IMG/VR virus record: IMGVR_UViG_3300042305_002284 | Span: 60,361 to 124,360 of that record | Source: a virus | DNA: 64,000 bases | Reading direction: 5' to 3' (one strand) | Shown here: positions 710-56,922 of the stretch, in pieces | Position numbering within the stretch: the first letter of the stretch is position 1 | How the letters are laid out: each line of letters starts with the position of its first letter | Translations under genes and position numbers: made by a program | The notes under the pieces: model-generated | What the model saw: the letters and a program-made list of their open reading frames with translations, nothing else | The model's database searches: none | Told to the model about the DNA's origin: nothing

Positions 710-3700
710 ATGTCTGATTTCAACACAAGAGGTAAACTTCCGTTTACTATTGTTAGTTCTTCTGTGAATACCGGCTATGCTGCCGCTCTGACTGCAAGTG
801 TTGGTCGCAATATAGACATTGTAAACAAACACAAAGACGAATACGGACAGACAAAAGACTCTCCTGCACAAGGTCCATTTACAAATCAACATGTTGGTGG
901 TAATCAACACCGCCATCAACCAATAAATACTGGAAATGATAATCAGAATAACCGAGGAGAAGCATATATCGTATCTGCCTCTGCGGGAAGTATAAAAGTA
1001 TATGGACCAGATATAAATGGTTTAGATAAACCAAGAAGTCTTCTAACTCGCGATAATACGGCCAAGTCTCCGGTAAATATAAAAAATATACAAACAAGTG
1101 GAAATATTGCTGGTAACTTTGAATACAACTATCAAGTTGTTCAAAGTGTTGGCCGCAGAACTACAAACAATCTCATAAACGATGGTTTTGAAGCAAGTGG
1201 AAGTCTAACAACAAAGTTCGTTTCAGGTTCTCATGAAATATACACTCTTCCAAATATAACAAACAATAGTAAAAGTATATTTGTTGAGCGTTTCAATGCT
1301 CCCGGTGGAAAAGAAGAAAGTTCAAGAGGAGCACTTGATCGTGAAGGTGAAGAATTTTCGCCCAATAACTCTCTTACAACAAGAAACATAAAAGTCAGGC
1401 AGCCATATTATAATCAACTAACACAACATGCTGCACAGTTCAATAGTGGCAGCACAAATAAACTATTGCCAGACACAGGAATAACTGATGCCGTAACGGT
1501 TCATGGTGTAAACAGAAATACAATAGAAAAGGTTTTGACGTTTCCAGAAATAATGTCACAAAAATCAATATTGAGTGGCTCTTTGGCGACGGATTCTAAC
1601 GATAACTTTGGTTTTTCTATTGCAATGAACTCCACGGGTGATCGTGTGGTTGTTACTGCCTATACTGATGAGAAAATTAGTGGAAATTCTAACATTGGTT
1701 TGGCTTATGTGTTCATCAGTGGAACCGGTGGCTGGTCTGAACAACACATATTAAGCGGTTCTTTGGCAACAGGTTCTTCAGATCAGTTTGGCGATTCCGT
1801 AGCAATGAATGCTGATGGCGACAGAATAGTCGTTGGTGCTATTTTTGATGAAAAAAGTGGAAGTGCTAATAGTTCTGGTTTGGCTTATATATTCGTTAGT
1901 GGAACCGGTGGTTGGGCAGAACAACACATATTGAGCGGTTCATTGGCAACAGGTTCAAGCGATGGTTTTGGTAATTCTGTTGCTATCAATGCTACTGGTA
2001 ATTGTGTCGTGGTAGGAGCTAGAAATAATGAAAAAAGTGTCATCACCGCTAGTTCTGGTTTGGCTTATATATTCGTTAGTGGAACCGGTGGTTGGGGAGA
2101 ACAACACATATTGAGCGGTTCATTGGCAACAGGTTCTTTTGATTTTTTTGGCACTTCTGTTGCTATCAATGCTACTGGTAATTGTGTCGTGGTAGGAGCT
2201 AGAAGTGATGAAAAAATCAGTGGAAATAACAATACTGGTTTGGCTTATATCTTTGTCAGTGGAACCGGTGGTTGGGCAGAACAACACATACTGAGCGGCT
2301 CATTTGCTTTAGAGTCTGATGACTTTTTTGGCAATCACATTGCTATTAATGCCGCTGGTGACAGAATAGTGGTTGGTGCTTCTTTTGATGAAAAAAATAG
2401 TGGAAATATCAATACTGGCTTGGCTTATATATATGTCAGTGGGGCAAGTGGCTGGACAGAGCAACAGATATTGAGCGGCTCTCTGTCGACAGAAAGTAGC
2501 AATCAATTTGGCTATTCTGTTGCTATCAATAATAGCGGAGATCGCGTCGTTGTATCAGACACATATGATCTTGCGAGTGGTCAATCGGGTATTGTTTATC
2601 TGTTTGTTAGCGGAGCAAATGGTTGGACTCAAAGACATATATTTAGCGGTTCCTTATCAACAGAGCCAAATGACTTTTTTGGTTCTTCTGTTGTTATGAA
2701 TGCTGCCGGTAGTCGTGTTGTGATAGGCGCAACAAGTGATGAAAATATTATTGGAAATACCGAAACAGGTCTTGCTTATATATTTGATACAACGCAAGAA
2801 GAAGAAATAATCAATCTAACAACCCATGATAACTTCTGGGTTCAACACGCAATACCATCAACTGATCTAAGGTACAAATGGATTGCTGAATCTGTATCAA
2901 GCAGTCAACAACCAATACAATATCAAAGTTACAATCTGCCATATTCAACAGGTAGTTTATATAACTCCAATGGAGCATATACTGACATATCTTTTGAACA
3001 AACAGGACCATTTGGCGATCATTTAGGTATAAGTGGCGCTATTGATAAAGATGAAATGTTTACAAGCAATTATACAAATACAATGTATAGAGATAGAAAA
3101 TATTTATTCTTTACAGCAAGCAATGACTGTTTTATAAATGCTTCAAGTATAGCGCAAGAAATATCTGAAAAAGACTTTTCTGTTTCTTTTTGGGTAAGTT
3201 TTCCAACCAGCGCAAGCAATGGAGAAAAAACACTATTAGTCTATTCTGGTTCTTCAACTCAAAATGAACTTGTAATGAATGTTAGTTCTTCGCTTTGCGG
3301 TCTTACAATATCAGGATCTCAAACAACAACAGAATATCAACTTAGTTCAAGTTTATTAGATAGTTCTTGGCATTTAGTAACAGTAACAAGTGATGTTACA
3401 ACGAGAACGCGAAGAATAACAACTGTTGCTGGCAGCGTTATTGAAACAACATCATTCCCAACTGTTACAAATGTTTATTTAGATGGCGGCTTGGTTAGCA
3501 GAATTTCACAGCCAAATAAAATATTCAACCTTTCTCAAATAACACTTTCAGTTGGTAGAGGTTCTGAACTTCAAGGTGGAAGTTTAGATGAAGTATATTT
3601 CTGGAATAAAGCTCTAACAGAGCAAGAGATAGTAGAAATATATAGAACAACAAAATCTGATTATGACAAACAGCCAAAGAAATATGCCGAACATAAGTTG

Positions 3701-8602: not shown

Positions 8603-11600
8603 GTGACTGCTACAACCCAAGAAGAAGTATTGTCAGGTATTCTTCCAAAAGTAAATATCAATAAAATAACGCTAACAAGTCCAGATGAAAGAATACTGAA
8701 TGTATCCTTGGACCTAACAATAAAAGAAACTCTGGATGATGGCTTTTTTGGCAGTTGGTTTGAGGATATAAATATAAACAAATATATTCTTGTTGAAATA
8801 GTCCAGTCCACTGATGCCGCAGTAACAGAAGCACTATCGTATTCAAACGATATGATACAACTTTGTAATCTACAAAGACAACTAAAAATAGACGATACAA
8901 GAACAAAAGCACTTGCTTATATAACACAAAACAATAAAGTAAGTGATCTACTTGCACTTCTTGAAGATAAAACAAAGCGCGAAACTATATCTATAAATAA
9001 ATCTGAAACAAAAATAACAGAAAACATCGCTTATACCAATAGTGATGGTGATAAAATATACGAAATACCTTATAAAGTTCAGTTTTCGCTTGACAAGCAG
9101 CCAGAACATTTAGCATATTTTGCTGTTTGTTCCATTGATTTAGATGCTTTGTGTGCTGATTTGAATATAGATTATGATGTTGCTGAATCATTTGAGGAAA
9201 ATGGAAGAGTTGTAAGCGAGATTGTAATAGATGAATTTAATGTTGTAAGTGAAACTTATGTTTATGTCGATAAAAATGGAGTTGTTTGGACCGGTCCGGT
9301 GCATGAAACAGAACAGGGTCTATGGCGTAGCGGAGACGATGAAACAAGCGAATCTATAAATCTTGACAGAATACTTGTAACCAACACAAAAGTTCAAGAT
9401 TTTCGCAGATTCAACCGTATAGAAAGATTGATGGTTGATTTCAATAATGTAAATAGTAGATATGTTGATGGTTCGTTGGTTCAAGATTTTTCCTTGTTGA
9501 CAGAAACAACAGCAAACAATATAACAAAAATACAATCTGTTGATTATAAGCCAGACAGATATACGGCGCAGTTTACCGAAGCGTTTTCTTCAACAGATGC
9601 TAATGGAAACTATAAGTTTTTATTTGGAGTAAACTTTTTAGAAGTTTTGAAAAGTCATTCAAGATTTGCAAAACTTTTTGAGACAAATAGTGATACATTC
9701 AAAGAAGAAAGCATTCAAAATACAAGAATATTAGATTTAAAACTTTATAGAACAAGAATAAAAAATGCTGATAGCAAGCCTTATGAAAAACTAAATCCAG
9801 AAGAGCCAGACGAGTTGATATTACAGACAAAAGATATATCTTGGAAGAACTTTATAAACATAAACAATGATCTGTCAGCAATAAAAGAAGCAGATATTCT
9901 TACAAATAATACAAACAACTTTATAAGATATTTTACTGGTATAGATAAAACTTTCAAAAACTTGTCTGACGGTGTTTATCAATATAAGATTGATTTTGAA
10001 ATAGAAGATGGAGTTGTTGAGTTTATACAAGATAAACTATCGCAACTTGAAATCGCAAAAAAACAACTGGTTGAATATTCAAATAAAATCAGCAAGCCAA
10101 CTATGAGAAAATTCATTGTAGACAATACCAATCCACATATTGAATCGCCAAGTGAATATTCGCAAAACTCTCTTGTAATGGATTATGGTTATGATATTGT
10201 TACCAATAAACTATCTCCACAACTTATTTCAAAAACTATAAGAGAATACGGTGGAATAACTTCTATTACAGCGCCATGGAACACATGTTCTGCCACTCTT
10301 GCTTATATTTTAGATATTTTTAGTTCTGAAATATCAACAGAGCAAGATAGAGAAGAAATAGTGCGCTCTATTTTTGACATGTTGAGTCCCAACTCTACCA
10401 ATCCACAAATAGTTGCCAGAGCAATAGAGATGATAGATTATTTTATAACCAATATATCAAAAACATTTGATATAACTGTTGGCGATAATAGTTTTGCTTC
10501 TAATACAACTTCAACTATTAGTTCAAAAACTAATAAAACTTTCAAAACCACAAAAGTTCTTGAAGGCGTTGGCGATACATCTATATCAAAATCATTCGGT
10601 ATTGACTATCTGTCTAACACAACCTCTCAGCCAACCGGAGAAGAAGGATTGCTTGTTTTATCTTCCCAGCACATGTTGACAAGAACTCAAAATGAAATGT
10701 CAAAGTTTTTTACAACACAAGATCCAAATATATCTTTTTCCAATACCGGTGATAACTTTCAAGACTTGAAATATTCCTATTTTACTCCAACAAGAATAGA
10801 CTTCCCAAACAAAACAACTGTTTTATCAAGACTTGATAATGATAACTCGCAGGGAAATACAAGAAGCATAGATTATTTTTATGAAAATGCGAACAACTTT
10901 ACAAAAGCAGTTTCCTTACAAGCCGACATAATCAACTTCAAACTTGATGTTGGAGGAAAGAATAGATTTTTACCAGAAACAAAAAAACAATCTTCACAAG
11001 AACAACTAACTCCGGCACAAAGAAGAGGACAAGCATTAGAACAAAAAGACATTTCAATAAATAAAATGAAACAAGTTCTTGCAGAATATTCCAGCACAAC
11101 ATTTATGGGATATTCTGTATCGCAAGAAGTCAATGTGGAAGGTCAGCAAAACATAACTCAACTTGAAAGATTTATGAGTTCTTTGAGTTCTGATGCTCTT
11201 CGTCTGAAACAAACATTTGGCTATAAAAAATCAAAAAATAGCAGCACATTTGTTCCGAACTATGTTGAAGAAGATTACATAAGAAATCTATCCGAACTAA
11301 ATCCAAATAGCATAAGAATATCAAATGATCGCATAACAGGCTTTCGAAAGGTCTTTCCAGTCTCACTACTTGGAAATGTGCCAAATCAACTAAGGGCTAT
11401 CATATTCAAGCCACAAGAACTACAAGTAGATATAGCGAGTTCTATAACAAATACAAATAATACTTACAGTATAAATGTTGTAAATAAAGCAAAAAACTAT
11501 TTTCATTTTGAGATGATCGCACAGATTGAATATCTTGAAGGATTTGACACGACACAAAGTTCAAGCGATCAATCAACAATGAACCCGGTTTGGAAAACTC

Positions 11601-12145
11601 TTACAAAAAGTTATATTGACAATGTTCAAAGAGAAAAAGAAATACTTTGTCGCATTAGATCTTTTGGCAATGCAAATATAGGAATAAAAACAAACGCAGA
11701 GGTTGAAAATAGAAGTTATGATAAATATTTCATAATAAGAACAACAACGCTGAGAGCACAAAGACCTGTAAATCCATTTGACGATAATCCACTTGTCAAT
11801 CGCTTTATAGATACCATAAAAATAAATATACCAGGTATACAAATAAAAGAATCAAGTGATATAACAAGGCGACTTGTCACATCTGCTCCATCAATACAAA
11901 TAATAAAAACAGACACAACTGGAAGAAGACAGGTTGTTGAAGTAAAAGATATAAGAGATGCTGTGGCAAGAGACATTTCTGTTGTTCAAAATACAAAAGT
12001 TGGAGATACAAGAACTCCTGCATCTGTAACGGCAGCAGTAAATGTTATTTCTCTTGCTTTTCAAGGCGCCAACATAAGTAATAATGTAAGAAGCAGCAAC
12101 TTTGTTCCTAATACCAATATAAAAACAGCGGGCAGGAGAGTGTAA
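8603..12145 (+). CDS. Large hypothetical virion protein (1180 aa, GTG start)
   Basis: GAGGT RBS before GTG; long ORF tightly packed within the structural operon. Confidence 0.6.
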   Translation: MTATTQEEVLSGILPKVNINKITLTSPDERILNVSLDLTIKETLDDGFFGSWFEDININKYILVEIVQSTDAAVTEALSYSNDMIQLCNLQRQLKIDDTRTKALAYITQNNKVSDLLALLEDKTKRETISINKSETKITENIAYTNSDGDKIYEIPYKVQFSLDKQPEHLAYFAVCSIDLDALCADLNIDYDVAESFEENGRVVSEIVIDEFNVVSETYVYVDKNGVVWTGPVHETEQGLWRSGDDETSESINLDRILVTNTKVQDFRRFNRIERLMVDFNNVNSRYVDGSLVQDFSLLTETTANNITKIQSVDYKPDRYTAQFTEAFSSTDANGNYKFLFGVNFLEVLKSHSRFAKLFETNSDTFKEESIQNTRILDLKLYRTRIKNADSKPYEKLNPEEPDELILQTKDISWKNFININNDLSAIKEADILTNNTNNFIRYFTGIDKTFKNLSDGVYQYKIDFEIEDGVVEFIQDKLSQLEIAKKQLVEYSNKISKPTMRKFIVDNTNPHIESPSEYSQNSLVMDYGYDIVTNKLSPQLISKTIREYGGITSITAPWNTCSATLAYILDIFSSEISTEQDREEIVRSIFDMLSPNSTNPQIVARAIEMIDYFITNISKTFDITVGDNSFASNTTSTISSKTNKTFKTTKVLEGVGDTSISKSFGIDYLSNTTSQPTGEEGLLVLSSQHMLTRTQNEMSKFFTTQDPNISFSNTGDNFQDLKYSYFTPTRIDFPNKTTVLSRLDNDNSQGNTRSIDYFYENANNFTKAVSLQADIINFKLDVGGKNRFLPETKKQSSQEQLTPAQRRGQALEQKDISINKMKQVLAEYSSTTFMGYSVSQEVNVEGQQNITQLERFMSSLSSDALRLKQTFGYKKSKNSSTFVPNYVEEDYIRNLSELNPNSIRISNDRITGFRKVFPVSLLGNVPNQLRAIIFKPQELQVDIASSITNTNNTYSINVVNKAKNYFHFEMIAQIEYLEGFDTTQSSSDQSTMNPVWKTLTKSYIDNVQREKEILCRIRSFGNANIGIKTNAEVENRSYDKYFIIRTTTLRAQRPVNPFDDNPLVNRFIDTIKINIPGIQIKESSDITRRLVTSAPSIQIIKTDTTGRRQVVEVKDIRDAVARDISVVQNTKVGDTRTPASVTAAVNVISLAFQGANISNNVRSSNFVPNTNIKTAGRRV

Positions 12146-12146
12146 T

Positions 12147-15864: not shown

Positions 15865-15879
15865 TATTAGGAGAATACA

Positions 15880-16899: not shown

Positions 16900-16972
16900 C
16901 CACTTGACTAAATACGTTACGCTCAACAAGTTTTCTGCTATCGTGCTGAAACAAAAAATATAACAAATAAAG

Positions 16973-17004
16973 AAACTGCCTATTTATTTTAGGCAGTTTT
17001 TATT
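16973..17004 (+). terminator. 10-bp hairpin (aaactgccta/taggcagttt) with T-rich tail; CCTATTTAT promoter-like motif spans the stem top and loop
   Basis: Perfect inverted repeat 16973-16982/16990-16999. Confidence 0.6.
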
Positions 17005-17964: not shown

Positions 17965-17965
17965 A

Positions 17966-18274: not shown

Positions 18275-18298
18275 TAAATATTTTAGGAGCTATAAACA

Positions 18299-19102: not shown

Positions 19103-19120
19103 TCAATTTTATTGAAAAGA

Positions 19121-19129
19121 ACTATTTAC
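19121..19129 (+). promoter_or_regulatory. Putative late promoter motif ACTATTTAC
   Basis: Intergenic, upstream of GAGG RBS and ATG 19146. Confidence 0.55.
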
Positions 19130-39564: not shown

Positions 39565-39584
39565 TAAATAGAGAACTATAAAAA

Positions 39585-42500: not shown

Positions 42501-43166
42501 TTCAACTTAACTGCTTCTGGTATTTCTAATTTCACTAATGATGTAAGATCTCAATTTAGTGCTGGAACAAATATAACAATAGTTGGTGGAGTTATATCGT
42601 CGACAGGCGGCGGTGGCGGTGGAAGTCCTGGTGGTTCTGATACAGCAGTTCAATTCAACAGTGGTAGCACATTCAGTGGTTCTACAAATCTTGTTTACAA
42701 CTATAACACAAATATTCTAAGTGGAACAACAGCCCAATTTACTATTATAACATCTTCATTTACTGGTAGTGGTGCTGGTTTGTATGATATTACTTCTTCT
42801 GGTATTAATAACTTTACAAACGATGTACGAGCCCAGTTCTCTGCTGGTGCTAACATAACAATAAATGCGGGTGTTATATCTGCTACAACCGGAAGTGTTA
42901 TAGGATCAGTAATAACAGTTACAGGAAACTATATAGTACTGACAACAGATGATCGCATATTTACTGATGGGACACTAACACTAACACTACCAAGTGCTGT
43001 GGGAAGTTCAGGAAAGTCATATTATATAAAAAATATAGGCACAGGAAGCGTAACAGTAACAGGAACATTAGGACAAAAAATAGATGGTTATGACAATATG
43101 ATAATAACAGAACAAAACTCTGCCTTTGGCTTACTATCTAATAATATTGGTTGGTATATATTCTAA
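39585..43166 (+). CDS. Repeat-rich fibre protein (1193 aa)
   Basis: Multiple copies of TASGISNFT.DVR.QFSAG.NITI.GGVIS, poly-Gly hinges, TGSTVTGSTALFT; C-terminal LTLPSA...YYIKNIG...IDG domain typical of fibre ends. Confidence 0.7.
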   Translation: MSLTTKNQLLIAFKKLVGKAHTNSQFGSANESVGSNVQLDNSTIFSQPIPSSPNTALYSTTNDIVERVQFNLVSISLSQYTAVGAAGGGITADGDGAPTQGTFTNGIHAYALALPANYTTLSSNPKKGTGVFINGQSLTGSNGLLQIVPERYGSLYPASVSSSIGIVAALDEEDYLLDPYSGILFVQDINRVPTSVTAYIYIGDYLNQTVSGTTAQFTTISGSTVTGSTALFTTISGAHFGSGAGLTNITASGISNFTNDVRAQFSAGTNITIVGGVISSTGGGGGGTPGGTDTTVQFNSGSTFSGSTNLVYDYTTNILSGTIARFTVVTASFTGSGAGLTGIPNSGLVNSNITVGTTSIPLGSSATTIQGVSVLTGSTVTGSTALFTTVSGALFGSGAGITGIPNSGLTNSSITVGTTVISLGSSATTIQGISVLTGSLITGSTALFTSITGNLLGTASFATNAGNANTVTNGVYTNTNNTFTGINTFNTNYITGSITGSDAKFTSISGSHTGSGAGLFGIPTTALTSNTITVGSTSIALGGTATTIQGISVLTGSTVTGSTALFTSITGNLFGTASFATNAGNANTVTNGVYTNTNNTFTGINTFNTNYITGSITGSDAKFTSISGSHTGSGAGLFNITASGISNFTSDVRSQFSAGTNITIVGGVISSTGGGGGGTPGGINTTVQFNSGSTFSGSTNLVYDYITNTLSGTTAQFSQITASSIRTAFITSSNIDTDYIDFNGTNGDAAWQTGRLYYNTASNLLSVYTEVPDLKIHLGEQLAVRVQNDLPTILAKGKVIQITGSSSSDVPRVITASWDNDVTSARTLAVVMEDIAVGGRGYALLSGLFEGLNTNAYLPGQMLYLSSSGDITNVHPPAPYHEVRIGQVVRKQTNNGSIFVRIQNGYELEELHDVELTLPQNGDLLTYQTSPYNQWVNSKTLSGSYNITNALTASTIAATTITASFTGSGAGLFNLTASGISNFTNDVRSQFSAGTNITIVGGVISSTGGGGGGSPGGSDTAVQFNSGSTFSGSTNLVYNYNTNILSGTTAQFTIITSSFTGSGAGLYDITSSGINNFTNDVRAQFSAGANITINAGVISATTGSVIGSVITVTGNYIVLTTDDRIFTDGTLTLTLPSAVGSSGKSYYIKNIGTGSVTVTGTLGQKIDGYDNMIITEQNSAFGLLSNNIGWYIF
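41046..41476 (+). repeat. Intragenic direct repeat with 354-nt period; 77-bp identical core (41046-41122 and 41400-41476)
   Basis: actttcaacacaaactacattacagg...ccggttctcatac occurs twice, identically. Confidence 0.9.
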
Positions 43167-43175
43167 GGAGATATT

Positions 43176-43571
43176 ATGGCATTTTTTGAGACTACTAAAC
43201 TAAAAGATACTGACGGACAACAAATAAATCCGGCAACAGAAGATAGTCTTACGCTTCTAAGAAGAATATTGCTATTACTAAAACCACTTCAGCAAATAAC
43301 AGGTGGCGGTTCTAATCGTCTAAATGTTGACGTAAATAACATTACTGGTGGCACTATCGGTACCGTATCAACCGTATCAAGCGTATCAAACGTATCAACC
43401 GTATCAACCGTATCAACCGTATCAACCGTATCAACTGTCACCGGCGTTACAACTGTATCAACCCTAACAAACCAAGCACAAATAGCTGGTGTAAATGCTT
43501 TTGAACAATTGCGAGCAATAAACCGAGTTGGTTATGCCACCGGAATAAGAGCAAACATAACTTTCACCTGA
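43176..43571 (+). CDS. Small fibre-associated protein with (TVS)n repeat
   Basis: AAGGAG RBS; TVSTVSSVSNVSTVSTVSTVSTVS. Confidence 0.6.
   Translation: MAFFETTKLKDTDGQQINPATEDSLTLLRRILLLLKPLQQITGGGSNRLNVDVNNITGGTIGTVSTVSSVSNVSTVSTVSTVSTVSTVTGVTTVSTLTNQAQIAGVNAFEQLRAINRVGYATGIRANITFT
43362..43433 (+). repeat. 9-bp tandem repeat (accgtatca) x8, in frame
   Basis: Six exact and two single-mismatch units, followed by three degenerate units to 43460. Confidence 0.95.
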
Positions 43572-43589
43572 TATAGAGGATATATATAA

Positions 43590-46466
43590 ATGGCAGTCAC
43601 AAACAATAACAAAGCAGTAGTTGATTTACCTTATTTTGAGTTACTAAATCAAGCACCAGCCGCTACTACTGTTCTGGCAGGTATGACTTCTGCCGAAGAC
43701 AACTCAGATCCTTATATATATTATTTATCAACTTCCGCATTTTATCGCTATGATGCGGGTGCTGATACTTGGCAACAACTGGCAACCCCAAATACTGCTC
43801 CTGTCTCTGTTCTAAAAATGAGATACACCTCTCGTCGTGGCTATCACGGTCGCGTACTTTCTTCTACATCAACAACAGTTGAGATCCCATCTACAAGGTT
43901 TGGTATTTTGGATGGCAAAAAAATAAGTATAGAGTTTGGTAGAGGAGCAGGACAAGAAAGAACGCTTACTTATGTAAGTGAAAGAGTTCACGACAATGGA
44001 GTTATAACCGGAACAACAACTTCTACTTTGGTTGATAGCACTAAAAGGTGGGCTATAAATCAGTGGGCTGGGTATACAGTTGCTATTACATTTGGTACTG
44101 ACGCAACTCATTATAGAAAAATACTTTATAACGACGCAACAACACTTACAATAGCAGATGTTAACTTACTACCACACGATCCCTGGAATAACCAAATATT
44201 TGTGGCAGCTACACCATATGCTGTTCCTGTAACTACTGCTGGTTCTCAGGCTCACTATGAGATAAGAAGTGCTACTTTTAATATTGATACTGCCTGGGAT
44301 ACAAACCCAGATCATACTTCATATTTTACCGTAAGAAGTGGTGGTATTTATCTTGTTTCTTCTGCCGCTGCGACACCGTTTTTTACATTACAATATTACG
44401 ATCTTGCTAACGATGTATGGCAAACAAAAACTTGTCCTCAAGGTCTTTTAGGTGCTGCTCTTGCTACTGATGTAGCGGTAGAAAGAACAGGAAAAATAGG
44501 AACAGTATTGTTGAGTGGTTCTGGTTCTATTACTGCCACAACAAGAACTATTACTCATTCAACCTTGAATCTGACAAATGATAGATATGCTAACTATAGA
44601 ATATTTATAACAAGTGGTTCTGGTACTGGACAAAACAAAAGAATAGTTGCTCACAATACCTCTTCGTTAACAATACCCAATAGCTGGGACGTTTTACCGA
44701 ATAGTACAAGCAGATATGAGATCTGGCCAGATCCAGATCGTCTTTATATGAATACTCCTTCTGCTGGTGCAAGCATACTTGCTTATAGTCCACAAAACGA
44801 CTTTTGGATGCAAGGACAAAGTTTTGATGACGGTATAACATCAAATATCACTTGTCAAATGAGTGGCTGGTTGCCCGTTGGTGTAACAACAGGTGCTCGT
44901 ATTGCCGCTGGTATTACAGCAATAAATCCAGTACCAACTGCGGGTGGAACTGGATATTTTATAGGTGATGTTCTAACTTGTGCTGTTGGTGGAACAGGCG
45001 CACAAGTTAGAGTAACAAACATTTCTGCTGGTGGTATTGTTACGCAAATACAGTTAGCACATGCCGGTACTGGAACTGGTTATACAGTTGGAACCGGAAG
45101 AGCAACAACCGGTGGTTCTGGTACTGGATGTACAATAGAAATAACAAGTGTTGGCCCAACAGCACTTATAACTACTGCTACTGCCCATTGGTTTGACGAA
45201 GATGAATCTGTTACTTTTGCTGGCTGTTCGGAAGCAGCCTATAATACTTTACATGCTATTATAGGCGTGAACTCTACAACTTCATTTTCTGTTGCCGTAA
45301 CAGCAACTGCCAACATGGCAGCAAGTAACTCACAAACAACAACTCTAATAGTTGATCCTTCTAAAAACTGGATAACTAATGAGCACGTTGGGCGTCTTGT
45401 TCATCTAATGGTTGCCGGTCAAGCACCAACTTCGCAAATACGCTGGATTACTGCTAACACTGCTACAACTCTAACAGTAAATACAATAACTGCTGGCGTA
45501 AACGGTACAAGCAAATATGCCATATATGACTCAAAACCATTTGGCGTCGACGAAGTAAGTCGTGTAACCGGAAGAGGAAATACAGGCTGGGCAACAGGTG
45601 GAACCACAACATCACTTGTTGATTCAACTAAAACCTGGATACCAAATCAATGGTCAGGCTCTTTCTTCCGTGTAGAAGCAGGAACTGGATATGGAAGTGG
45701 AAGAATCCAAATAACTTCTAATACCTCAAGTTCTCTAAACTATGCTACACAAACATTTACACCAGATAGTTCAACTAAGTTTGAGATCGCAGATACTTGG
45801 GGTATTATTGGTACTGCTGGTTCTACAACAACTATATCTATGCCTACTGGTTCAGTATCAACGCTAAACTATTGGGCCGGTAAGCGCGTGCGTCTTCTTG
45901 CTGGTACTACCGGTACCGGTCAAGAAGCAGCAGTTACATCAAATACTGCTGGTTCTGGTTCTATTCCAGGTGTTCTAACCACGAGTACAATAACCGCTCC
46001 AAGTGCTGATGCTGTTGTTGCAGTTTTGTCTATTCCTGCTCGTGGTGCTGGAACTGAACTTATTTGGGCACATAGTAATACAAACTCTACTACAAAAGGT
46101 AGATATATTTATTTCCCAAGAGGTGGTGGTAGCAATATACTAGACATATACGATATAACAACTGGCAAGTTCTTCTTTGGTATAATGATATCTCCACAGA
46201 ACGAAGCATTTGGTGCCGGTTCTTCATATACTTATGATGGTGCTGATAGCATTTATTTATCTCGTTCTGCTGCTGCTAACCCTATACGTGTTCTAAAATA
46301 CAATATAAACAACAATACTATAGTTGGTGGTATGACAACTACCATACTACAAGGCACAGTACACGCTGGTAACTTTTTAGAAATAGTACAAACAACTGAC
46401 GGTCTAAAATATATATATACCTTACAAAATACAGGAACTATATTTACCCGTGCTATGATATTGTAA
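43590..46466 (+). CDS. 958-aa virion protein: Kelch-like propeller blades interrupted by repeated small beta domains
   Basis: Blades FYRYDAGADTWQQLA, YYDLANDVW, AYSPQNDFW, DIYDITTGKF; repeats TLVDSTKRWAINQWAG / IVDPSKNWITNEHVG / SLVDSTKTWIPNQWSG. Confidence 0.6.
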   Translation: MAVTNNNKAVVDLPYFELLNQAPAATTVLAGMTSAEDNSDPYIYYLSTSAFYRYDAGADTWQQLATPNTAPVSVLKMRYTSRRGYHGRVLSSTSTTVEIPSTRFGILDGKKISIEFGRGAGQERTLTYVSERVHDNGVITGTTTSTLVDSTKRWAINQWAGYTVAITFGTDATHYRKILYNDATTLTIADVNLLPHDPWNNQIFVAATPYAVPVTTAGSQAHYEIRSATFNIDTAWDTNPDHTSYFTVRSGGIYLVSSAAATPFFTLQYYDLANDVWQTKTCPQGLLGAALATDVAVERTGKIGTVLLSGSGSITATTRTITHSTLNLTNDRYANYRIFITSGSGTGQNKRIVAHNTSSLTIPNSWDVLPNSTSRYEIWPDPDRLYMNTPSAGASILAYSPQNDFWMQGQSFDDGITSNITCQMSGWLPVGVTTGARIAAGITAINPVPTAGGTGYFIGDVLTCAVGGTGAQVRVTNISAGGIVTQIQLAHAGTGTGYTVGTGRATTGGSGTGCTIEITSVGPTALITTATAHWFDEDESVTFAGCSEAAYNTLHAIIGVNSTTSFSVAVTATANMAASNSQTTTLIVDPSKNWITNEHVGRLVHLMVAGQAPTSQIRWITANTATTLTVNTITAGVNGTSKYAIYDSKPFGVDEVSRVTGRGNTGWATGGTTTSLVDSTKTWIPNQWSGSFFRVEAGTGYGSGRIQITSNTSSSLNYATQTFTPDSSTKFEIADTWGIIGTAGSTTTISMPTGSVSTLNYWAGKRVRLLAGTTGTGQEAAVTSNTAGSGSIPGVLTTSTITAPSADAVVAVLSIPARGAGTELIWAHSNTNSTTKGRYIYFPRGGGSNILDIYDITTGKFFFGIMISPQNEAFGAGSSYTYDGADSIYLSRSAAANPIRVLKYNINNNTIVGGMTTTILQGTVHAGNFLEIVQTTDGLKYIYTLQNTGTIFTRAMIL

Positions 46467-48301: not shown

Positions 48302-49987
48302 ATGTCAGTTATCAAAAAATTAACAGAAGGCGTCGTAAAGCGTGACCTTGAAAAAGAAGGTGGTGCTCTACTAAGCAAATGGTCAGAAACAGGTCTACTC
48401 GAAGGTATAGGCGATGATCGTGCTAAATCTTCAATGGCTCGTCTATTAGAAAATCAGGCTCAGGAACTACTCCGCGAAGCCAACACAATGTCAGGAGGTG
48501 ATGTAGAAGGTTTTGCCGCTGTTGCGTTCCCAATAGTGCGCCGTGTATTCGGTTCACTTATTGCGAATGAACTTGTTAGCGTTCAACCAATGAGTCTACC
48601 AAGTGGTCTAATCTTCTTCCTTGACTTCCAGTTTGAGCGTACACGCGGCGCCAATCTACAAGATACCTCAATATTTGGTGGTGGTGTTGTTGGTTCACAA
48701 CTCACTGGCGGTGTCAGTCTTTCAGGTGTAAATGCTGAAAACTCACTCCGTGCTCTAAACCAAGGTTATTCACTACCAACTGGCAGTGGTAACGTTACAC
48801 TAACACTTGTCACCTCGGGAACCTTTGGTGCTGGTGGTACTCTTGACAAACTTTGTAGGTTTGATGCTGACTTTGTCAGTGGTTCAACCAAAGTCGCAAT
48901 ATTTACTGTTTCAGGGAGCAGTCTAACTGCACTTGATAAGAGCAGTCTTATTGCGATCAATGCTACACTACCAAGCGGCTCACTTGTTCGTCGCCTAACC
49001 GACAAAACAGATTCAACCGGTCTTGTCGACACTAGCGGTGAAACCTATACCCACATTCGTCTTGTAGTTGCCAGCGAAACACTTGCTCCAACTCTACTTG
49101 ACGACAATGCTGGTTCTCGTGCGCTAACTTGGCCAATTGCTGATGTTATTGGTAACGTTGGTCTTGACGCACAAGGTGCTGTTGTTGCTTCGCAGGTAAC
49201 CTTTGAAGGCGAAGCAAACATTCCAGAAATTGATATCAAAGTTGACAGTGTTGCTGTAACTGCCAAGACCCGCAAGCTCAAGGCAAAATGGACACCAGAA
49301 CTTGGTCAAGACCTCAATGCATACCACAATCTTGATGCAGAAGTTGAACTCACTTCAATTCTGTCAGAACAGATTGGTCTTGAAATTGATCAAGAAATGC
49401 TTGGTGAACTTGTCAAAGGTGCAACCGCTGCAACACTATATTGGTCACGCCGCCCAGGTAAATTCGTAGATCGTACAACCGGTCTTGCGATTGCCAGTGG
49501 TGTAAGTGATCCAAATGGTGCTGACTTCACCGGTAATGTCAGTATGTGGTACGAAACCCTTGTTGAAACAATCAACGATGTAAGTGCTGCAATTCACCGT
49601 AAAACACTTCGCGGCGGCGCAAACTTTGTTGTTTGTGGTCCAGAAGTTGCCAACATCCTTGAATTCACCAGTGGCTTCCGTGCCAATGTTGTTCATGATG
49701 ATGCCAAGGGCACAATCGGTGCTGTCAAAGCAGGTTCACTCAGCAAGAAATGGGATGTCTTTGTTGACCCATACTTCCCACGCAACCTGATCCTTGTTGG
49801 TCGTAAAGGCAATAGTTTCCTCGAAAGTGGATTCGTATATGCCCCATATGTACCACTACAAGTTACACCAACCATCTTTGGAACCGAAGATTTCGTTCCA
49901 AGAAAAGGTGTGATGACACGCTACGCCAAGAAGATGGTTAGACCAGACATGTATGGCCTCGTAGTCGTACAAGACCTACTTGGTTGA
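48302..49987 (+). CDS. gp23: Major capsid protein (T4 gp23-like)
   Basis: KWSETGLLEG, LLENQA, FPIVRRVF, VSVQPMSLPSGLIFF, AKTRKLKAKWTPELGQDL, YAPYVPL, TRYAK. Confidence 0.96.
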   Translation: MSVIKKLTEGVVKRDLEKEGGALLSKWSETGLLEGIGDDRAKSSMARLLENQAQELLREANTMSGGDVEGFAAVAFPIVRRVFGSLIANELVSVQPMSLPSGLIFFLDFQFERTRGANLQDTSIFGGGVVGSQLTGGVSLSGVNAENSLRALNQGYSLPTGSGNVTLTLVTSGTFGAGGTLDKLCRFDADFVSGSTKVAIFTVSGSSLTALDKSSLIAINATLPSGSLVRRLTDKTDSTGLVDTSGETYTHIRLVVASETLAPTLLDDNAGSRALTWPIADVIGNVGLDAQGAVVASQVTFEGEANIPEIDIKVDSVAVTAKTRKLKAKWTPELGQDLNAYHNLDAEVELTSILSEQIGLEIDQEMLGELVKGATAATLYWSRRPGKFVDRTTGLAIASGVSDPNGADFTGNVSMWYETLVETINDVSAAIHRKTLRGGANFVVCGPEVANILEFTSGFRANVVHDDAKGTIGAVKAGSLSKKWDVFVDPYFPRNLILVGRKGNSFLESGFVYAPYVPLQVTPTIFGTEDFVPRKGVMTRYAKKMVRPDMYGLVVVQDLLG

Positions 49988-50119: not shown

Positions 50120-50693
50120 GTGCCAAAACTAAAAACAATAAATGATTTTATAACCGATGCAATAAGAAAACACGGGAACAAATACTTTCTGGAAGTTTGG
50201 CATCGGCAACAAGTGATAGATTTGCAACATCTGTTGCAAGCAATGCAAACGGAAATAAAATAGTTGTTGGAGCAATCAATGATGAAAAGACCGGTACGAA
50301 CGGAGAAGGATTGGCATATGTATTTTCTAGTGGTAGTAGTGGGTGGAGCGAGGAACACATATTGAGCGGCTCGCTTGCCACAACTCTCCTTGATAACTTT
50401 GGATATTCTGTGAATATAAACAGTACGGGTGAATATATCGTAGTGGGTGCTCCTGATGACGAATCTCCTGCAAATGCGGCCAGTTCTGGTCTTGCATATG
50501 TGTTTGTCAGTGATTCTGGTGGTTGGTCAGAAAACAGATTTTATCTGGAACGTTCGCTACTGGTTCTAACGAGCGTTTTGGTATGTCTGTTATCATAAAT
50601 TCAAGCGGCAATCTTATAGCAGTTTCTGCGCCTGGTGATGAGTCGGGGTCACTTTCTGATTCTGGCTATACTTACATATTTGAAGCGCGATAA
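50120..50693 (+). pseudogene. Chimeric remnant: 22-codon homing-endonuclease-like N-terminus joined out of frame to three FG-GAP blades with a further frameshift
   Basis: GGGAG RBS + GTG PKLKTINDFITDAIRKHGNKY; then ILSGSLASATSDRFA...; a missing A at ~50531-50534 breaks the frame, restoring gives KQILSGTFATGSNERFG...GYTYIFEAR-stop. Confidence 0.7.
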
Positions 50694-50759
50694 AAGATAA
50701 TCACTTTTTTTGTTACCATATCGTTAATGGTTGCTTATTTTCTTTTATTATTAGTTACA

Positions 50760-50797
50760 ACTATTTATATTAGTCCAATAGGAGACTAATATAAATG
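50760..50797 (+). promoter_or_regulatory. Late promoter motif ACTATTTAT overlapping a 13-bp inverted repeat that covers the RBS/start codon
   Basis: atttatattagtc (50763-50775) / gactaatataaat (50784-50796); loop caatagga. Confidence 0.7.
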
Positions 50798-52111
50798 TCT
50801 GTTCCCGTTCTAACGCCAAAACAACAAACAAGTGCTATAATACTACCAGCAACTGGAACTCTTATAAATGTTGTTCCTAATTTGCCAATTGGTGTTTATG
50901 CTGATAGTAACGATTTTAGACTTGGAGCAGTAGATCAAGTTGCCTATACGTATAAAATGATAGGTGGAGATGTTCTCGATATAGAAATAACAGAAGGACA
51001 AGTATATGCTGCCTACGAAGATGCAACGCTTACTTATTCTTATCTTGTTAATCTACATCAAGCAAAAAATGCCATTGGAACACTTCTTGGTTCTCCAACT
51101 GGTACCTTTGATAGTGATGGTGAAATAAAAAGCGGTAGCGCCCTTTTTGATCTTGTAAATCAGAACGGTTCTTTGAGTCTTGCTTATCCGATGTATGATA
51201 TTACATCAGTAAGAGATATTGCTGATGCATTTTCACACGAAGCTGGTATTGGCGGAAGAGTGGACATCTATTCTGCTTCTTTTGACGCTATCCCGGATAC
51301 ACAAGACTATGATTTACAAATGATAGTTTCAAGTTCGGCAAGCGATCCAAATTCTCCGCTGTTTGGAAAAGTAGCACCAGGAAGCAGAATAACAGTAAAA
51401 AAAGTATTTTATAAATCTGCACGTGCTATGTGGAGGTTTTATGGATATTATGGTGGTCTAAATGCAGTAGGAAACCTTTCTACATATGGTCAATATGCTG
51501 ACGACAGCACGTTTGAGATCATACCAGCATGGCATAATAAACTTCAAGCAATGGCATATGAGGATAATATCTATACTCGTATCTCTCACTATTCTTATGA
51601 ATTAAAAAATAATAAACTTCGTCTTTTTCCGATTCCCGATTCAACCGACATAAGAACATTTTGGTTTGAGTTCAGTGTTGGTAGTGGAAATGGTTCAAAT
51701 ATTGGTATAGGTAATCTATCTGGTTCTTCTTATGTCGCGGCAAACAACAAAGATCCCAGAATAGGTGGAGTAAATAATATAAATACTTTACCTTTTTCAA
51801 ACATACCGTTTGAAAACATAAATGCAATAGGCAAACACTGGATTCGTCGCTATGCTCTTGCTGTGGCAAAAGGTATGCTTGCAGAGATTCGTAGTAAGTT
51901 CCAGACGATACCAATACCTGGTGAAAGTGTAACTCTAAATGGCGCTGATCTGCGTGCGCAAAGTAAAGAAGAAAAAGACGCTCTCAAAGAAGAGTTACTA
52001 AAAATACTTGAGGATACAGACTACGCAATACTGGCTGAAAAGCGAACTGCTATGTCTGATAATGCAAATAAAACATTGGCAGCAATACCAAATATTATAT
52101 TTGTTGGATAG
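50795..52111 (+). CDS. gp13: Neck/head-tail adaptor protein (T4 gp13-like)
   Basis: GGDVLDIEITEGQV, WIRRYALAVAKGMLAEIRSKF, IPGESVTLNG; position after the MCP. Confidence 0.75.
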   Translation: MSVPVLTPKQQTSAIILPATGTLINVVPNLPIGVYADSNDFRLGAVDQVAYTYKMIGGDVLDIEITEGQVYAAYEDATLTYSYLVNLHQAKNAIGTLLGSPTGTFDSDGEIKSGSALFDLVNQNGSLSLAYPMYDITSVRDIADAFSHEAGIGGRVDIYSASFDAIPDTQDYDLQMIVSSSASDPNSPLFGKVAPGSRITVKKVFYKSARAMWRFYGYYGGLNAVGNLSTYGQYADDSTFEIIPAWHNKLQAMAYEDNIYTRISHYSYELKNNKLRLFPIPDSTDIRTFWFEFSVGSGNGSNIGIGNLSGSSYVAANNKDPRIGGVNNINTLPFSNIPFENINAIGKHWIRRYALAVAKGMLAEIRSKFQTIPIPGESVTLNGADLRAQSKEEKDALKEELLKILEDTDYAILAEKRTAMSDNANKTLAAIPNIIFVG

Positions 52112-54087: not shown

Positions 54088-56922
54088 ATGAGTGGAGCAA
54101 ATAAGTATCGTTTCGTTTCCCCCGGAATTCAAATAAAAGAGATAGATCGTTCACAGGTAAACAACCTGAATGACGCAGTAGGACCGGTCCTGATCGGTCG
54201 TGCTCGTCGTGGTCCCGGTATGGTTCCAGTGAAAGTTCGTTCATACGAAGAGTTTGTTCAAATATTCGGTGAACCAGTTCGCGGTTCAACTGATGGTGAT
54301 ATCTGGCGTGAAGGAAACCTAACCGCTCCATCATATGCTACATGGGCTGCAAAAGCATATTTAGCAAATTCAAGTCCACTAACATTCGTTCGCCTAATGG
54401 GTTCAAAACACCCAGAAGCACTTTCTACTGGTGCCGGTGCGCCAGGCTGGAAAACAGCGCAAACTATATCAACAACTACCTCCACCAATGGTGGCGCTTA
54501 TGGTTTATTCGTAATACCATCAGGTTCCACAAGTGTTACTGGTACTCTTGCTGCTATATTTTATGTAGAATCGGGTGTTGCCCTCACACTTGCAGGCCAA
54601 AATCCTGCGGGCACTGTAACAACTGGTTCAGCTACTCTTGTAAGAACTCAAGGAAATAATTTTGAGTTTAGAATGAAAGTTCTAACTGGTTCAAGCGTAA
54701 ATGATACAGCACTGATTGATACTTCATTCAACTTTGATAAAAATTCAGATAAATATATCCGCAAAGTATTCAATACAAATCCAACACTTGTAAATTCTGC
54801 TATAACTTCAACCGAAAATCTTGAAAGATTTTGGCTTGGAGAAACATTTACTGACTTCCTAACCGATACAGTAACAACTTCTACATCATTTGGTTTTATT
54901 GCTGGTCTTAGCAGCGCAACCGCTGATTTATCAAATTTTCAAATAGCAGCGCAGCCAGCAAGAACTGGTTGGGTTTTAGCACAAGATTTGAGCACAGTTA
55001 CCGGTTCTTATAGCCCGCAAAACATGAATAGGTTGTTCCGATTTGTTGCTCTTGGTGGTGAGGGTTCTGGTGATTGGAATCAACGTTCTCTAAAAGTTGC
55101 TATCAAAGATATCAAATATTCACCAACGCCATTTGAAAAGTTTGGTTCGTTCACTGTTGAAATCAGATCAACTGCCGATTCAGATGCACAGCCTTCAGTA
55201 CTTGAAGTGTTTACAAATTGTAATCTAAATCCAAACTCAGAAAACTATATTGCAAGAAGAATAGGCAACAAATATCTTGAATGGACCGATGATCTTGCAA
55301 CGGGCGAGAAGAGACATAGAGTATTTGGAGATTATGACAATGTTTCAAAACTTGTTCGTGTTGAAATGAATTCACTTGTTGATGAAGGCGGAATAAGCGC
55401 CGAATCATTACCATTCGGTTTCCTTGGTCCAGTAAAATACAAAACTGCTAGTTTTACAAGCGGTTCTGCAATAACTGGAACAGATCTGATCAAAGCAGTA
55501 GGCAGAATACCTCTTGCGCCATCAGGAACAAACGACACAATAAACGTTGTTGGTATTACCGGTCTAACTGCTTCAATTGTTTTCCCAGAACTAAGAATGC
55601 GCGTATCTAGTTCTGATGCTGGTGTTCTAAATGATCGTGATACATATTTCGGTGTTGTAAGCAATATTGGAACTCGTGCTCAACTAAATGAAGAATATAT
55701 TGATCTTGTTAGAGTAAAACCATCAAATCTTGATACATTTGTTCCAACAAGCTCTCTAACTGAATTCTCAACTATCTTTACTCTTGATGATGTAAATGAA
55801 GTGTCTGGCTCAACAGGTAGATATTTCTGGAGAAGTGGTAGTCGTGTGGCAGGTTCCTCAATGACTGCAGCAGGTGCTTCATATAGAGCCATTCTTGACA
55901 AGGGCGTTGATAAATTTGTTATGCCAATGTTTGGTGGTTTTGATGGACTAAATGTAGAAGAAAAAGATTCTTTTGCTAATCGCGTCCTGGCTGTATCTTC
56001 AAATCCAGTAGCAAATTACGCACAATATAGTTTACAAAAATCACTTGATATGGTTAGCGATCCAGAAGTTGTAGAAATGAATCTTCTAACCGTTCCAGGT
56101 GTAACTAATACAACTGTAACAAATAAAGTTCTTGAAGTTGCTAAAACAAGAAACGATACTCTTGCAATAATAGATATTGAAGGTGGTTATATACCAACAA
56201 CTGAAAATGTCAATGCTGAAAGAAGCCGTCTTGGCAATGTAAATACTGCAGTAGCTAGTATCAAATCAAGATCGCTAAATAATAACTTTGGTTGTGCTTA
56301 TTATCCTTGGGTATCAATTGATGCAGGTGGTATACCATTGTGGGTTCCACCAAGTGTTGTAGCGCTTGGTACAATGGCATCATCGCAAGAAGCCACTGCA
56401 GTTTGGTTTGCTCCAGCCGGTTTCAATCGTGGTGGTCTAAGCAATGGCTCATCAGGTCTAAATGTTCTTGATGTTCGCGAAAGACTAAGTCTGAAACAGC
56501 GCGATGCTCTGTATGAAGTAAATGTAAATCCGATTGCTTCATTCCCAAGCGAAGGTATTGTAATATTCGGTCAAAAGACTCTACAAGCAACTCCTTCAGC
56601 ACTTGACCGCATCAATGTTCGTCGTCTTGCTATCTATCTCAAAGACAGAATCGGCAAGATCTCTCGCGGCATATTGTTTGATCCAAACCTACAAGTTACT
56701 TGGGATCGCTTCCTTGCGCAAGTTAATCCACTTCTTGCTGATACAAAAGCTCGTTTTGGTCTAAGTGATTACAAGGTTGTTCTTGATAACACAACCACTA
56801 CACCAGATCTCGTTGACCGCAATATAATGTATGCCAAAGTTTATATCAAACCAGCGCGTGCAATTGAATTTATCGCAATAGACTTCATCATCACAAACAC
56901 TGGTGCAAGTTTTGACGAGTGA
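54088..56922 (+). CDS. gp18: Tail sheath protein (T4 gp18-like)
   Basis: FVSPGIQIKEID, AYYPW, WFAPAGFNRG, RDALYEVNVNPI, GQKTLQ, SALDRINVRRL, KPARAIEFI. Confidence 0.95.
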   Translation: MSGANKYRFVSPGIQIKEIDRSQVNNLNDAVGPVLIGRARRGPGMVPVKVRSYEEFVQIFGEPVRGSTDGDIWREGNLTAPSYATWAAKAYLANSSPLTFVRLMGSKHPEALSTGAGAPGWKTAQTISTTTSTNGGAYGLFVIPSGSTSVTGTLAAIFYVESGVALTLAGQNPAGTVTTGSATLVRTQGNNFEFRMKVLTGSSVNDTALIDTSFNFDKNSDKYIRKVFNTNPTLVNSAITSTENLERFWLGETFTDFLTDTVTTSTSFGFIAGLSSATADLSNFQIAAQPARTGWVLAQDLSTVTGSYSPQNMNRLFRFVALGGEGSGDWNQRSLKVAIKDIKYSPTPFEKFGSFTVEIRSTADSDAQPSVLEVFTNCNLNPNSENYIARRIGNKYLEWTDDLATGEKRHRVFGDYDNVSKLVRVEMNSLVDEGGISAESLPFGFLGPVKYKTASFTSGSAITGTDLIKAVGRIPLAPSGTNDTINVVGITGLTASIVFPELRMRVSSSDAGVLNDRDTYFGVVSNIGTRAQLNEEYIDLVRVKPSNLDTFVPTSSLTEFSTIFTLDDVNEVSGSTGRYFWRSGSRVAGSSMTAAGASYRAILDKGVDKFVMPMFGGFDGLNVEEKDSFANRVLAVSSNPVANYAQYSLQKSLDMVSDPEVVEMNLLTVPGVTNTTVTNKVLEVAKTRNDTLAIIDIEGGYIPTTENVNAERSRLGNVNTAVASIKSRSLNNNFGCAYYPWVSIDAGGIPLWVPPSVVALGTMASSQEATAVWFAPAGFNRGGLSNGSSGLNVLDVRERLSLKQRDALYEVNVNPIASFPSEGIVIFGQKTLQATPSALDRINVRRLAIYLKDRIGKISRGILFDPNLQVTWDRFLAQVNPLLADTKARFGLSDYKVVLDNTTTTPDLVDRNIMYAKVYIKPARAIEFIAIDFIITNTGASFDE

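Follow-up and report, generated by a model that had tools for sequence, protein, structure and literature searches.

An ordered Ser/Thr-Gly-Ser tripeptide in the outward-facing virion proteins of an aquatic T4-type phage clade: a candidate acceptor motif for phage-encoded O-glycosylation

The window analyzed here, a stretch of 64,000 nucleotides, forms the right half (positions 60,361-124,360) of one virus contig of 124,360 bp, IMG/VR record IMGVR_UViG_3300042305_002284. We describe a tripeptide, Ser or Thr followed by Gly and Ser ([ST]GS), that recurs in many of the virion proteins encoded in the window, together with a set of predicted glycan genes in the other half of the contig that may act on it. 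The contig, for which CheckV gives a completeness of 62%, belongs to an aquatic, uncultured T4-type myovirus with ~36% G+C. Its recognized genes include those for a gp23-type major capsid protein (MCP), the tail sheath and tube, a gp20-type portal, TerL, a prohead protease, and gp25/gp27-like baseplate proteins (Table 1). The nearest named relatives of the MCP are all distant, namely, Microcystis phage Mel-JY01 (37% identity), Flavobacterium phage immuto (50%, C-terminal half), and Rhodothermus phage RM378. In IMG/VR, 209 MCP relatives were confirmed, the best 80 of them at 59-91% identity, and the pooled [ST]GS count for related loci below refers to these best 80 of the 209. Members of the clade near completion have genomes of 171-191 kb. 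Two complete relatives, G006 and G009, were taken whole (MCP identity of 66% and 64% over the match, and 62% and 60% by BLASTP).

Table 1. Features of the window and the two anchor transferases, with [ST]GS counts as observed/expected (aa, amino acids; GT, glycosyltransferase; small proteins are named by their start position)
Feature	Position in window (contig where stated)	Strand	Matches and [ST]GS counts
C-terminal end of 1226-aa LamG-domain baseplate/fiber protein	3..695 (contig 57375-61055)	+	Laminin_G_3; 8/1.58, whole protein
2283-aa FG-GAP/LamG virion protein	710..7561	+	FG-GAP_2 x7, Laminin_G_3; 22/3.85
Two large proteins, 1180 and 914 aa, nearly motif-free	8603..14891	+	8603, 0/0.70; 12147, 1/0.58
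Six small motif-rich proteins	14932..19541	+	14932, 2/0.28; 15880, 4/0.43; 17005, 7/0.55; 17966 (102 aa), 5/0.17; 18299, 3/0.41; 19146, 2/0.33
TerL and portal, motif-free contrast	27095..31910	+	0 and 0; families 0/1.4 and 2/5.3
Three fiber-like proteins and small motif-free 43176	36736..46466	+	36736, 15/3.23; 39585, 30/5.82; 43590, 6/1.95; 43176, 0/0.21
MCP, T4 gp23 type	48302..49987	+	PHROG 138, Pfam Gp23; 4/0.73
Four MCP sites, residues 160-227, in variable insertion domain	48779..48982	+	Sites start at residues 160, 193, 204, and 225 of 561
FG-GAP protein 50197 and neck protein 50795 (gp13-like C terminus)	50197..52111	+	2/0.48 and 2/0.44; PHROG 211 (50795)
Tail sheath, 944 aa	54088..56922	+	PHROG 23, Pfam sheath domains 653-935; 7/1.27
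Seven sheath sites, residues 145-585, in inserted N-terminal/middle domains	54520..55842	+	7/7 at strand end or loop
Tail tube, motif-free contrast	56961..57560	+	0 sites
Tape-measure-like protein, motif-free contrast	58687..61164	+	0/0.65; family 1/5.9
Two GT4 anchor transferases, g31726 and g32967	contig 31,726-34,256		Pfam Glycos_transf_1

All 133 open reading frame (ORF) proteins of the whole contig (39,992 aa) were scanned for [ST]GS, and the expectation was taken from 1000 composition-preserving shuffles of each protein. The motif was observed 156 times against 38.4 expected, an excess of ~4x, and in 500 shuffles of the whole proteome its count had a mean of 38.2 (standard deviation, 5.7) and a maximum of 55. 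Among tripeptides seen at least 12 times, TGS (78/18.6) and SGS (78/19.7) were the top two in excess. The seven permutations of the same residues spanned 0.48x-2.15x (SSG, 15/19.7; GSS, 30/19.7; TSG, 9/18.6; GTS, 12/18.6; GST, 40/18.6; SGT, 29/18.6; STG, 26/18.6), and the usual turn formers NGS (10/14.7) and DGS (7/10.6) fell below expectation. A preliminary description of the window had listed SAS, TAS, and SGT as variants of the motif; all three do exceed expectation, but TAS (third-ranked, 46/15.5), SAS (24/16.6), and SGT are weaker than [ST]GS itself. Other tripeptides in excess were DPN (19 versus 4.9) and the run KNI/NIT/ITG (39-41 versus ~15), which arises partly from fiber repeats ending in ITGS.

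Five repeat-rich proteins (three paralogous fibers and two FG-GAP proteins) hold 84 of the 156 sites. With these five removed, 72 sites were left against ~21 expected, and TGS and SGS were still the top two tripeptides. Local shuffling in blocks of 30, 15, or 8 residues gave 42-46 sites (45.8 ± 6.9 for the 8-residue blocks). The motif is encoded by 65 different 9-mers, with serine codons of both the TCN and AGY families, and reading these genes in their other five frames gave motif counts of only 4-38, so the signal lies at the protein level. In addition, the motif-rich proteins make up at least 12 groups that are unrelated by BLAST. The excess therefore depends on residue order and is not due to composition, repeats, or a DNA motif.

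The preliminary description had pointed to heavy use of [ST]GS in unrelated proteins of the window, and all of its per-protein counts were reproduced here. Its zeros held up as well, with no site in the tube, portal, tape measure, TerL, primase, or SbcD-SbcC, as did the near absence of the motif from 8603 and 12147 and its presence in every FG-GAP blade, SGS occurring once in each of the seven blades of the protein at 710. Homologues of the 1226-aa LamG protein carry 19/4.29 (G009) and 23/3.71 (G006) sites, and those of 8603 and 12147 in G009 and G006 carry 0, 0 and 1, 0 sites, respectively; neither 8603 nor 12147 had a match in Pfam, PHROG, or PDB sequence searches. Among the six small proteins, BLAST relates only 15880 and 17005, and these weakly, and the protein atlas matches of 17005 are viral clusters without names and nothing else. 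The fiber-like proteins at 36736 and 39585 are paralogous repeat proteins.

The division between rich and empty proteins recurs in the relatives. In pooled family counts, which come from mutually related sequences and whose statistics are indicative only, the MCP, the sheath, the neck protein 50795 (151/34.2), and the families of 52132, 52929, and 19146 (28/5.8) were 3.8-7.3x enriched, that of 52929 being the most motif-rich (26 versus 3.6; n = 8). For nine families that are internal or not part of the virion (TerL, portal, 32738, protease, 35995, 46732, tube, hub, and tape measure), the total was 9 [ST]GS against 33.4 expected, with their permutations at 116 versus 112.3. For the tube, 39 homologues gave 2/6.6 for [ST]GS, while the permutations stood at 31/23.7. 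The families of 52132 and 52929 also share sequence within this contig; a C-terminal stretch of 62 residues in 52132 (264 aa) recurs, at 71% identity, in the next ORF, the 71-aa 52929 (window 52132-53144).

Within the MCP and the sheath, the sites occupy the parts that the preliminary description had assigned to them, i.e., the variable insertion region of the MCP and the N-terminal and middle domains of the sheath, with none in the conserved C-terminal core of the latter. The same partition was seen in 61 MCPs, where the insertion region had 170 sites against 39.2 expected and the remainder had 6 against 14.9, and in 35 sheaths, where the N-terminal and middle domains had 186 against 43.7 and the conserved C-terminal core had 2 against 6.5. 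Outward exposure is established for inserted sheath domains and for the insertion domain of gp23. In our sheath model (predicted local distance difference test [pLDDT] of 79, predicted template modeling score [pTM] of 0.76, and Z of ~20 to solved sheaths), 290-420 of the 944 residues align to minimal sheaths, which is consistent with a large inserted outer part. The MCP model was poor overall (mean pLDDT, 60; pTM, 0.34), its usable part being the insertion domain at residues ~160-285 (pLDDT, 81-93), and a Foldseek search with it confirmed the gp23 fold and nothing more. All 11 of the 11 sites in both models are predicted to lie at a beta-strand end or in a loop. Domain position and loop placement suggest that the motif sits at exposed positions of virion proteins.

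The three positions of the motif are not equally permissive. In the motif-bearing proteins, position 1 takes Ser (5.5x) and Thr (5.4x) equally, position 2 favors Gly (5.5x) over Ala (2.6x) and Ser (1.6x), and position 3 takes Ser (5.5x), with Thr at merely 1.5x. Flanking residues were tallied for 891 dereplicated sites of the phage and its relatives. At position -1, Ile, Leu, Val, and Pro were enriched and Asp, Glu, and Arg were depleted; at position +3, Asp, Glu, Lys, and Pro were depleted. At sheath site 145, for which 35 sequences were aligned, Ser is found in 34 of 35, followed by Gly in 19, Ser in 7, or Ala in 7 and then by Ser in 33 of 35; at sheath site 305 of the same 35 sequences, the middle residue is Gly in 17, Ser in 11, and Ala in 3, and Ser occupies position 3 in 28 of 35. 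Because the middle residue toggles among small residues at such sites, "small residue" is a better description of it than a Gly-specific turn. In the MCP, the site at residue 160 is kept in 67 of 78 sequences.

Across the 80 related loci, [ST]GS was found 1215 times against 403.6 expected, with permutations at 1690 against 1368.9. G006 and G009 agree with this phage as to which orthologues are rich in the motif and which are empty, and SGS and TGS are also the top two tripeptides of G006. Of 98 sites aligned in six orthologous trios, an alignment that is uncertain in variable regions, 10 are common to the three genomes, 19 are common to two, and 69 are unique to one, and each orthologue in the trios is still 4-9x enriched. 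Individual sites clearly move, while the density of the motif persists.

Outside the clade, lineages were compared by an index, the [ST]GS excess divided by the permutation excess, computed over 24-49 kb of sequence surrounding the MCP gene. This index was 0.41 for T4, 0.84 for Aeh1, 0.87 for LR756511, 0.93 for syn9, 1.35 for AG-345-P14, and 1.55 for Colly_1, and it was 0.72 for LR756508, 0.98 for Mel-JY01, 1.98 for immuto, and 2.00 for RM378, against ~3.3 for this contig. T4 (5/10.5) and Aeh1 (6/6.6) have no [ST]GS excess. Immuto, which is a cultured phage, has a 373-aa virion protein with 12/1.25 and a sheath whose N-terminal part carries 7/1.31.

The preliminary description had also stated that no modifying enzyme is encoded in the window. 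This holds for the window, but the left half of the contig encodes two GT4 enzymes, a GT2, and a GT11 within a run of predicted glycan genes at contig 31,726-43,208. The gene order is two GT4, an unknown, GT2, a WecB-type UDP-GlcNAc 2-epimerase, an unknown, GT11, a methyltransferase, a nucleoside diphosphate (NDP)-sugar dehydrogenase, an FkbM methyltransferase, an unknown, an Fcl-like epimerase/reductase, and a PMI-type cupin. Pfam Glycos_transf_1 matched g31726 with 46.2 bits and g32967 with 31.1 bits (cut-off, 26.4), and the WecB-type epimerase scored 219.8 bits against a cut-off of 210. Two GT4 glutamates, E287 (within D285-A-E-G-F-G-L291) and E295, are invariant in 45 sequences; this pair, eight residues apart in the C-terminal half of the enzyme, we take to be the EX7E motif. 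The best solved-structure match of g31726 is chlorovirus B736L (PDB 3oy2), and it is weak (E value of 2.6e-7, 33 bits, residues 174-313). Pfam and NCBIfam matches of the anchor enzymes were of GT4 type only, with no heptosyltransferase family found. None of the island proteins is a polytopic membrane protein, and none has a hydrophobic 19-residue segment except for a Rossmann N terminus. A Pfam scan of the contig found no flippase, polymerase, initiating transferase, or Gtr-type family, which host enzymes could supply.

The GT4 pair is core to the clade. IMG/VR holds 508 relatives of g31726 at 56-87% identity, a range like that of the MCP, and the second GT4 is present in 77 of the best 80 of these GT4 loci. 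This enzyme and the upstream genes (PhoH, two small genes, and a PD-(D/E)XK nuclease) are each present in 71-78 of the 80, the nuclease, which immediately precedes the GT4 pair, in 78. MCP and GT4 occur together in 5 of 5 near-complete genomes, and the five longest MCP-bearing relative fragments, in which no GT4 or epimerase match was found, cover the other side of the genome. A search of 50,697 GenBank phage records with the GT4 gave 12 matches, and the top ones (immuto, Mel-JY01, LR756508, and RM378) are also the nearest relatives by MCP; immuto has the identical order of PD-(D/E)XK nuclease, GT4, GT4, and island. Two features of the neighboring proteins may be mentioned in passing. The PhoH protein (contig 28,651-29,967) has a fused N-terminal PIN domain and is conserved in 74 of 80 loci, where its gene lies a short way ahead of the two GT4 genes, and the second GT4 of loci L091, L103, L128, and L145 is 664-698 aa long, with a fused GT2 domain in L103 and L128.

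The remaining island genes, on the other hand, are each found in only 0-19 of the 80 loci. Where the first GT4 of two islands is 85-95% identical, only 22% of the ORFs of one island are matched by a homologue in the other, and all eight of the eight islands inspected differ in content. These eight encode Pfam families GT7, GT10, GT11, GT29, GT47, GT8, GT15, and GT32, sulfotransferases, a carbamoyltransferase, LicD, radical-SAM and FkbM methyltransferases, and CMP-sugar and rhamnose genes. Several of the families (GT29 sialyltransferase, GT10, GT7, GT47, GT15, and GT32) are eukaryote-like.

With its fixed residue order, its distinct preferences at each position, its restriction to outer domains, its lineage specificity, and its continual formation at new places, the motif resembles an enzyme recognition site. 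Since the soluble GT4 pair is the only clade-wide set of modifying enzymes that we noticed, we take virion O-glycosylation to be the most likely mechanism, and we propose, tentatively and at somewhat less than even chances, that a phage-encoded system of this kind uses [ST]-[G>A>S]-S as its acceptor motif. The motif, usually just after the end of a hydrophobic beta-strand, would be recognized in the cytoplasm, and attachment and initiation of the glycan would fall to the two conserved GT4 transferases. A strain-specific glycan would then be built by the variable genes that follow the pair, in this phage by means of the GT2, WecB-type epimerase, GT11, two methyltransferases, NDP-sugar dehydrogenase, Fcl-like reductase, and PMI cupin. 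The resulting coat would cover the outward parts of the virion, namely, the MCP insertion domain, the outer sheath domains, the neck, the baseplate periphery, the fibers, and the small decoration proteins. The Ser at position 3 would be the likeliest modified residue. That the enzymes act on proteins and recognize the motif is suggested by circumstantial evidence.

A wider form of the proposal is possible but more doubtful. It concerns a globally widespread clade of ~190-kb aquatic T4-like phages, in which a clade-wide hydroxy-small-Ser sequon would have the whole exterior of the particle coated with glycan by the phage's own enzymes, through core anchor transferases and a fast-swapped pathway that includes sulfotransferases and eukaryote-like sialyl-, fucosyl-, and galactosyltransferase families, as a second, non-protein layer of host range. 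On this wider proposal, the glycan would be a strain-specific surface identity, acting as a shield or as bait for glycan-binding uptake proteins of Bacteroidota hosts.

Several observations weigh against glycosylation as the explanation. The link between motif and enzymes is circumstantial. A promiscuous enzyme reading a purely linear sequon would be expected to lead to avoidance of the motif in cytoplasmic proteins, yet non-virion cytoplasmic proteins do not avoid it (12/6.4 in this phage, 7/3.3 in G009, and 5/4.2 in G006). Several beta-rich proteins of the virion module also lack it, among them 8603, a 601-aa baseplate protein, and 43176. In the MCP, S193-G194 is nearly invariant (at least 90%), and it is residue 195, the position-3 residue, that varies (Ser in 34 and Thr in 23). 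A structural capping motif would look much the same at strand ends with a hydrophobic residue at -1. Co-occurrence of motif and transferase was mixed as well. Among 11 lineages, an excess was seen in 3 of 5 with GT4 and in 0 of 6 without, a difference that is not significant and comes from lineages that are not phylogenetically independent, and Mel-JY01 and LR756508 have a GT4 homologue at ~30% identity yet no order-specific excess. Of the glycosylation proposal in the preliminary description, then, the order-specific counts, the outer-domain sites, and the encoded enzymes are in favor, while the lineage comparison is mixed and confounded by phylogeny.

The strongest alternative, although an unlikely one in our view, is that the tripeptide is a structural element peculiar to this lineage, capping strands or forming short loops in beta-rich, fast-evolving outer domains and read by no enzyme, and that the GT4 pair and island act elsewhere, most likely on host envelope glycans, where they could block superinfection or alter the cell surface. 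The placement of all modeled sites at strand ends or loops, the abundance of Ile, Leu, Val, and Pro at -1 with few charged residues on either side, the strong conservation of some sites (MCP residue 160 and S193-G194), the lack of avoidance in non-virion proteins, and the two GT4-bearing phages with no excess would all suit this explanation. Glycosyltransferase islands of marine pelagimyophages and cyanomyophages, moreover, have been read as modifiers of host O-chains in the available text of a published study (PMC7029224), a reading that also counts against virion glycosylation. What a structural cap leaves unexplained is the preference of one clade for this residue order, with NGS and DGS depleted and with no excess in the outer proteins of T4 and Aeh1. 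It also accounts poorly for the 69 of 98 sites that are unique to one genome at undiminished density, for the exchange of the middle Gly for Ser or Ala at conserved sites, and for the acceptance of Thr at position 1 but not at position 3, and an island acting on the host envelope would have to do so with no flippase, polymerase, or other polytopic membrane protein of its own.

It is less probable again that the motif is functional in some other way, i.e., as a site of phosphorylation, acylation, or cross-linking by a host or phage enzyme, or as a hydroxyl-rich patch that binds host polysaccharide or mucus-like polymers. Residue order, exposed domains, turnover, and clade-wide spread do not say what reads the motif, and the LamG and FG-GAP domains of the same proteins suggest contact with glycans. 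On the other side, no clade-conserved kinase or other modifying enzyme turned up when the contig, which is 62% complete, was scanned with Pfam and PHROG.

We consider it quite improbable that the glycan genes modify phage DNA, as with the glycosylated hydroxymethyl-pyrimidines of T-even phages, and that the tripeptide is unrelated to them. The PD-(D/E)XK nuclease directly upstream of the GT4 pair, in immuto as well as in the 78 loci, and a dCMP deaminase on the contig are in keeping with such a role, and diverse DNA glycans made by phage transferases have been reported (Pyle 2024, cited in the available text of PMC12619734). DNA glycosylation is nevertheless less likely because a thymidylate-synthase-family (ThyA) hydroxymethylase was found in 0 of 5 near-complete relatives, with a control positive in 10 of 14 genomes; Pfam scans of the 62%-complete contig found none either. 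A Tet_JBP search gave no match, its control being equally silent. Sulfo-, sialyl-, and fucosyltransferase-like genes also suit a surface glycan better than DNA. Finally, an artifact of Ser/Thr/Gly-rich composition, internal repeats, or a DNA motif is scarcely credible and was rejected, since even with so many of the sites in five repeat-rich proteins, the excess survives their removal and the 8-residue block shuffles, the permutations stay near expectation, and the motif is spread over many 9-mers and unrelated protein groups.

Virion O-glycosylation as proposed here can be set beside three known systems. In mycobacteriophages, the only phages for which we know of published virion glycosylation, the glycans are reported at the C termini of capsid and tail tube subunits (Freeman et al. 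2023, cited in the available text of PMC12619734). The candidate system would resemble that one in its phage-encoded soluble transferases and in having virion proteins as proposed acceptors, modified in the cytoplasm before or during assembly. The mycobacteriophage case, however, concerns siphoviruses of Actinobacteria and is chemically proven, whereas this aquatic T4-like myovirus is known from sequence; the islands also differ in size, and the moraphages of PMC12619734 are a different lineage. A further difference, and one that counts against our proposal, is that the candidate sites lie within the chain (in the MCP, residues 160-227 of 561) rather than at the C terminus and that the tube is empty. 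The second system, TibC/AAH, consists of soluble enzymes that glycosylate many serines, but not threonines, in beta-helix loops of TibA/AIDA-I (available text of PMC4358343). By analogy, a soluble cytoplasmic GT-B enzyme would here too act on many serines in short loops between strands. TibC/AAH differ in belonging to the heptosyltransferase family rather than to GT4, in adding a single sugar to one substrate family, and in having no glycan island; they are a precedent by mode of action, not by family membership.

Third, the fibril glycan clusters of Megavirinae comprise 6-33 nucleotide-sugar and transferase genes, are clade-specific, and decorate the particle (available text of PMC10117803). 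Virus-encoded glycan genes that vary among clades are common to both, and the best structure match of g31726 comes from a chlorovirus. Those systems belong to eukaryotic viruses, however, and no comparable acceptor tripeptide is described in the available text of PMC10117803. With its GT4-type enzymes, internal loop sites, and site-free tube, the candidate system belongs to none of the three families. The pelagimyophages and cyanomyophages offer a further comparison, since they too are marine T4-like myophages whose islands change fast and carry many transferase and sugar-nucleotide genes. Their islands lie inside the structural/fiber region, whereas the one described here follows a clade-wide GT4 pair at a distance from the fibers and goes with a peptide motif in the virion; the available text of PMC7029224 does not mention motif analysis.

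Full-text literature searches found no paper tying an SGS/TGS motif to phage glycosylation, and the available text of PMC12801897 contained nothing of relevance. If the proposal is right, [ST]GS would be the first known sequon of virion glycosylation in phages, and such glycosylation, so far known from a few actinobacteriophages, would extend to an abundant lineage of aquatic T4-like phages. The "host lipopolysaccharide" glycan islands of marine myophages could then be reread as particle-coating kits, and glycan sites of uncultured phages would become predictable from sequence alone. If it is wrong, a sharp, clade-specific tripeptide at the strand ends of outer domains still demands an explanation.

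Other genes of the contig deserve brief mention. The portal gene (window 28698-31910; 1070 aa) contains an intein that bears an HNH endonuclease, with Pfam matches to Intein_splicing at residues 125-483 and HNH_3 at 246-289, and the portal homologues of the two complete relatives have 640 and 655 aa. A homologue of ribosomal protein S21 (window 36460-36660) and an Hc1 histone-H1-like protein (25878-26072) are also encoded, and Mel-JY01 likewise has S21, at the corresponding place. A single ORF of 1058 aa (window 21216-24392) combines SbcD-like and SbcC-like nuclease subunits in one fused protein. At the far left of the contig, two adjacent small genes on the minus strand (contig 1975-2436 and 2944-3348) are paralogous, their products being 81% identical over 125 aa.

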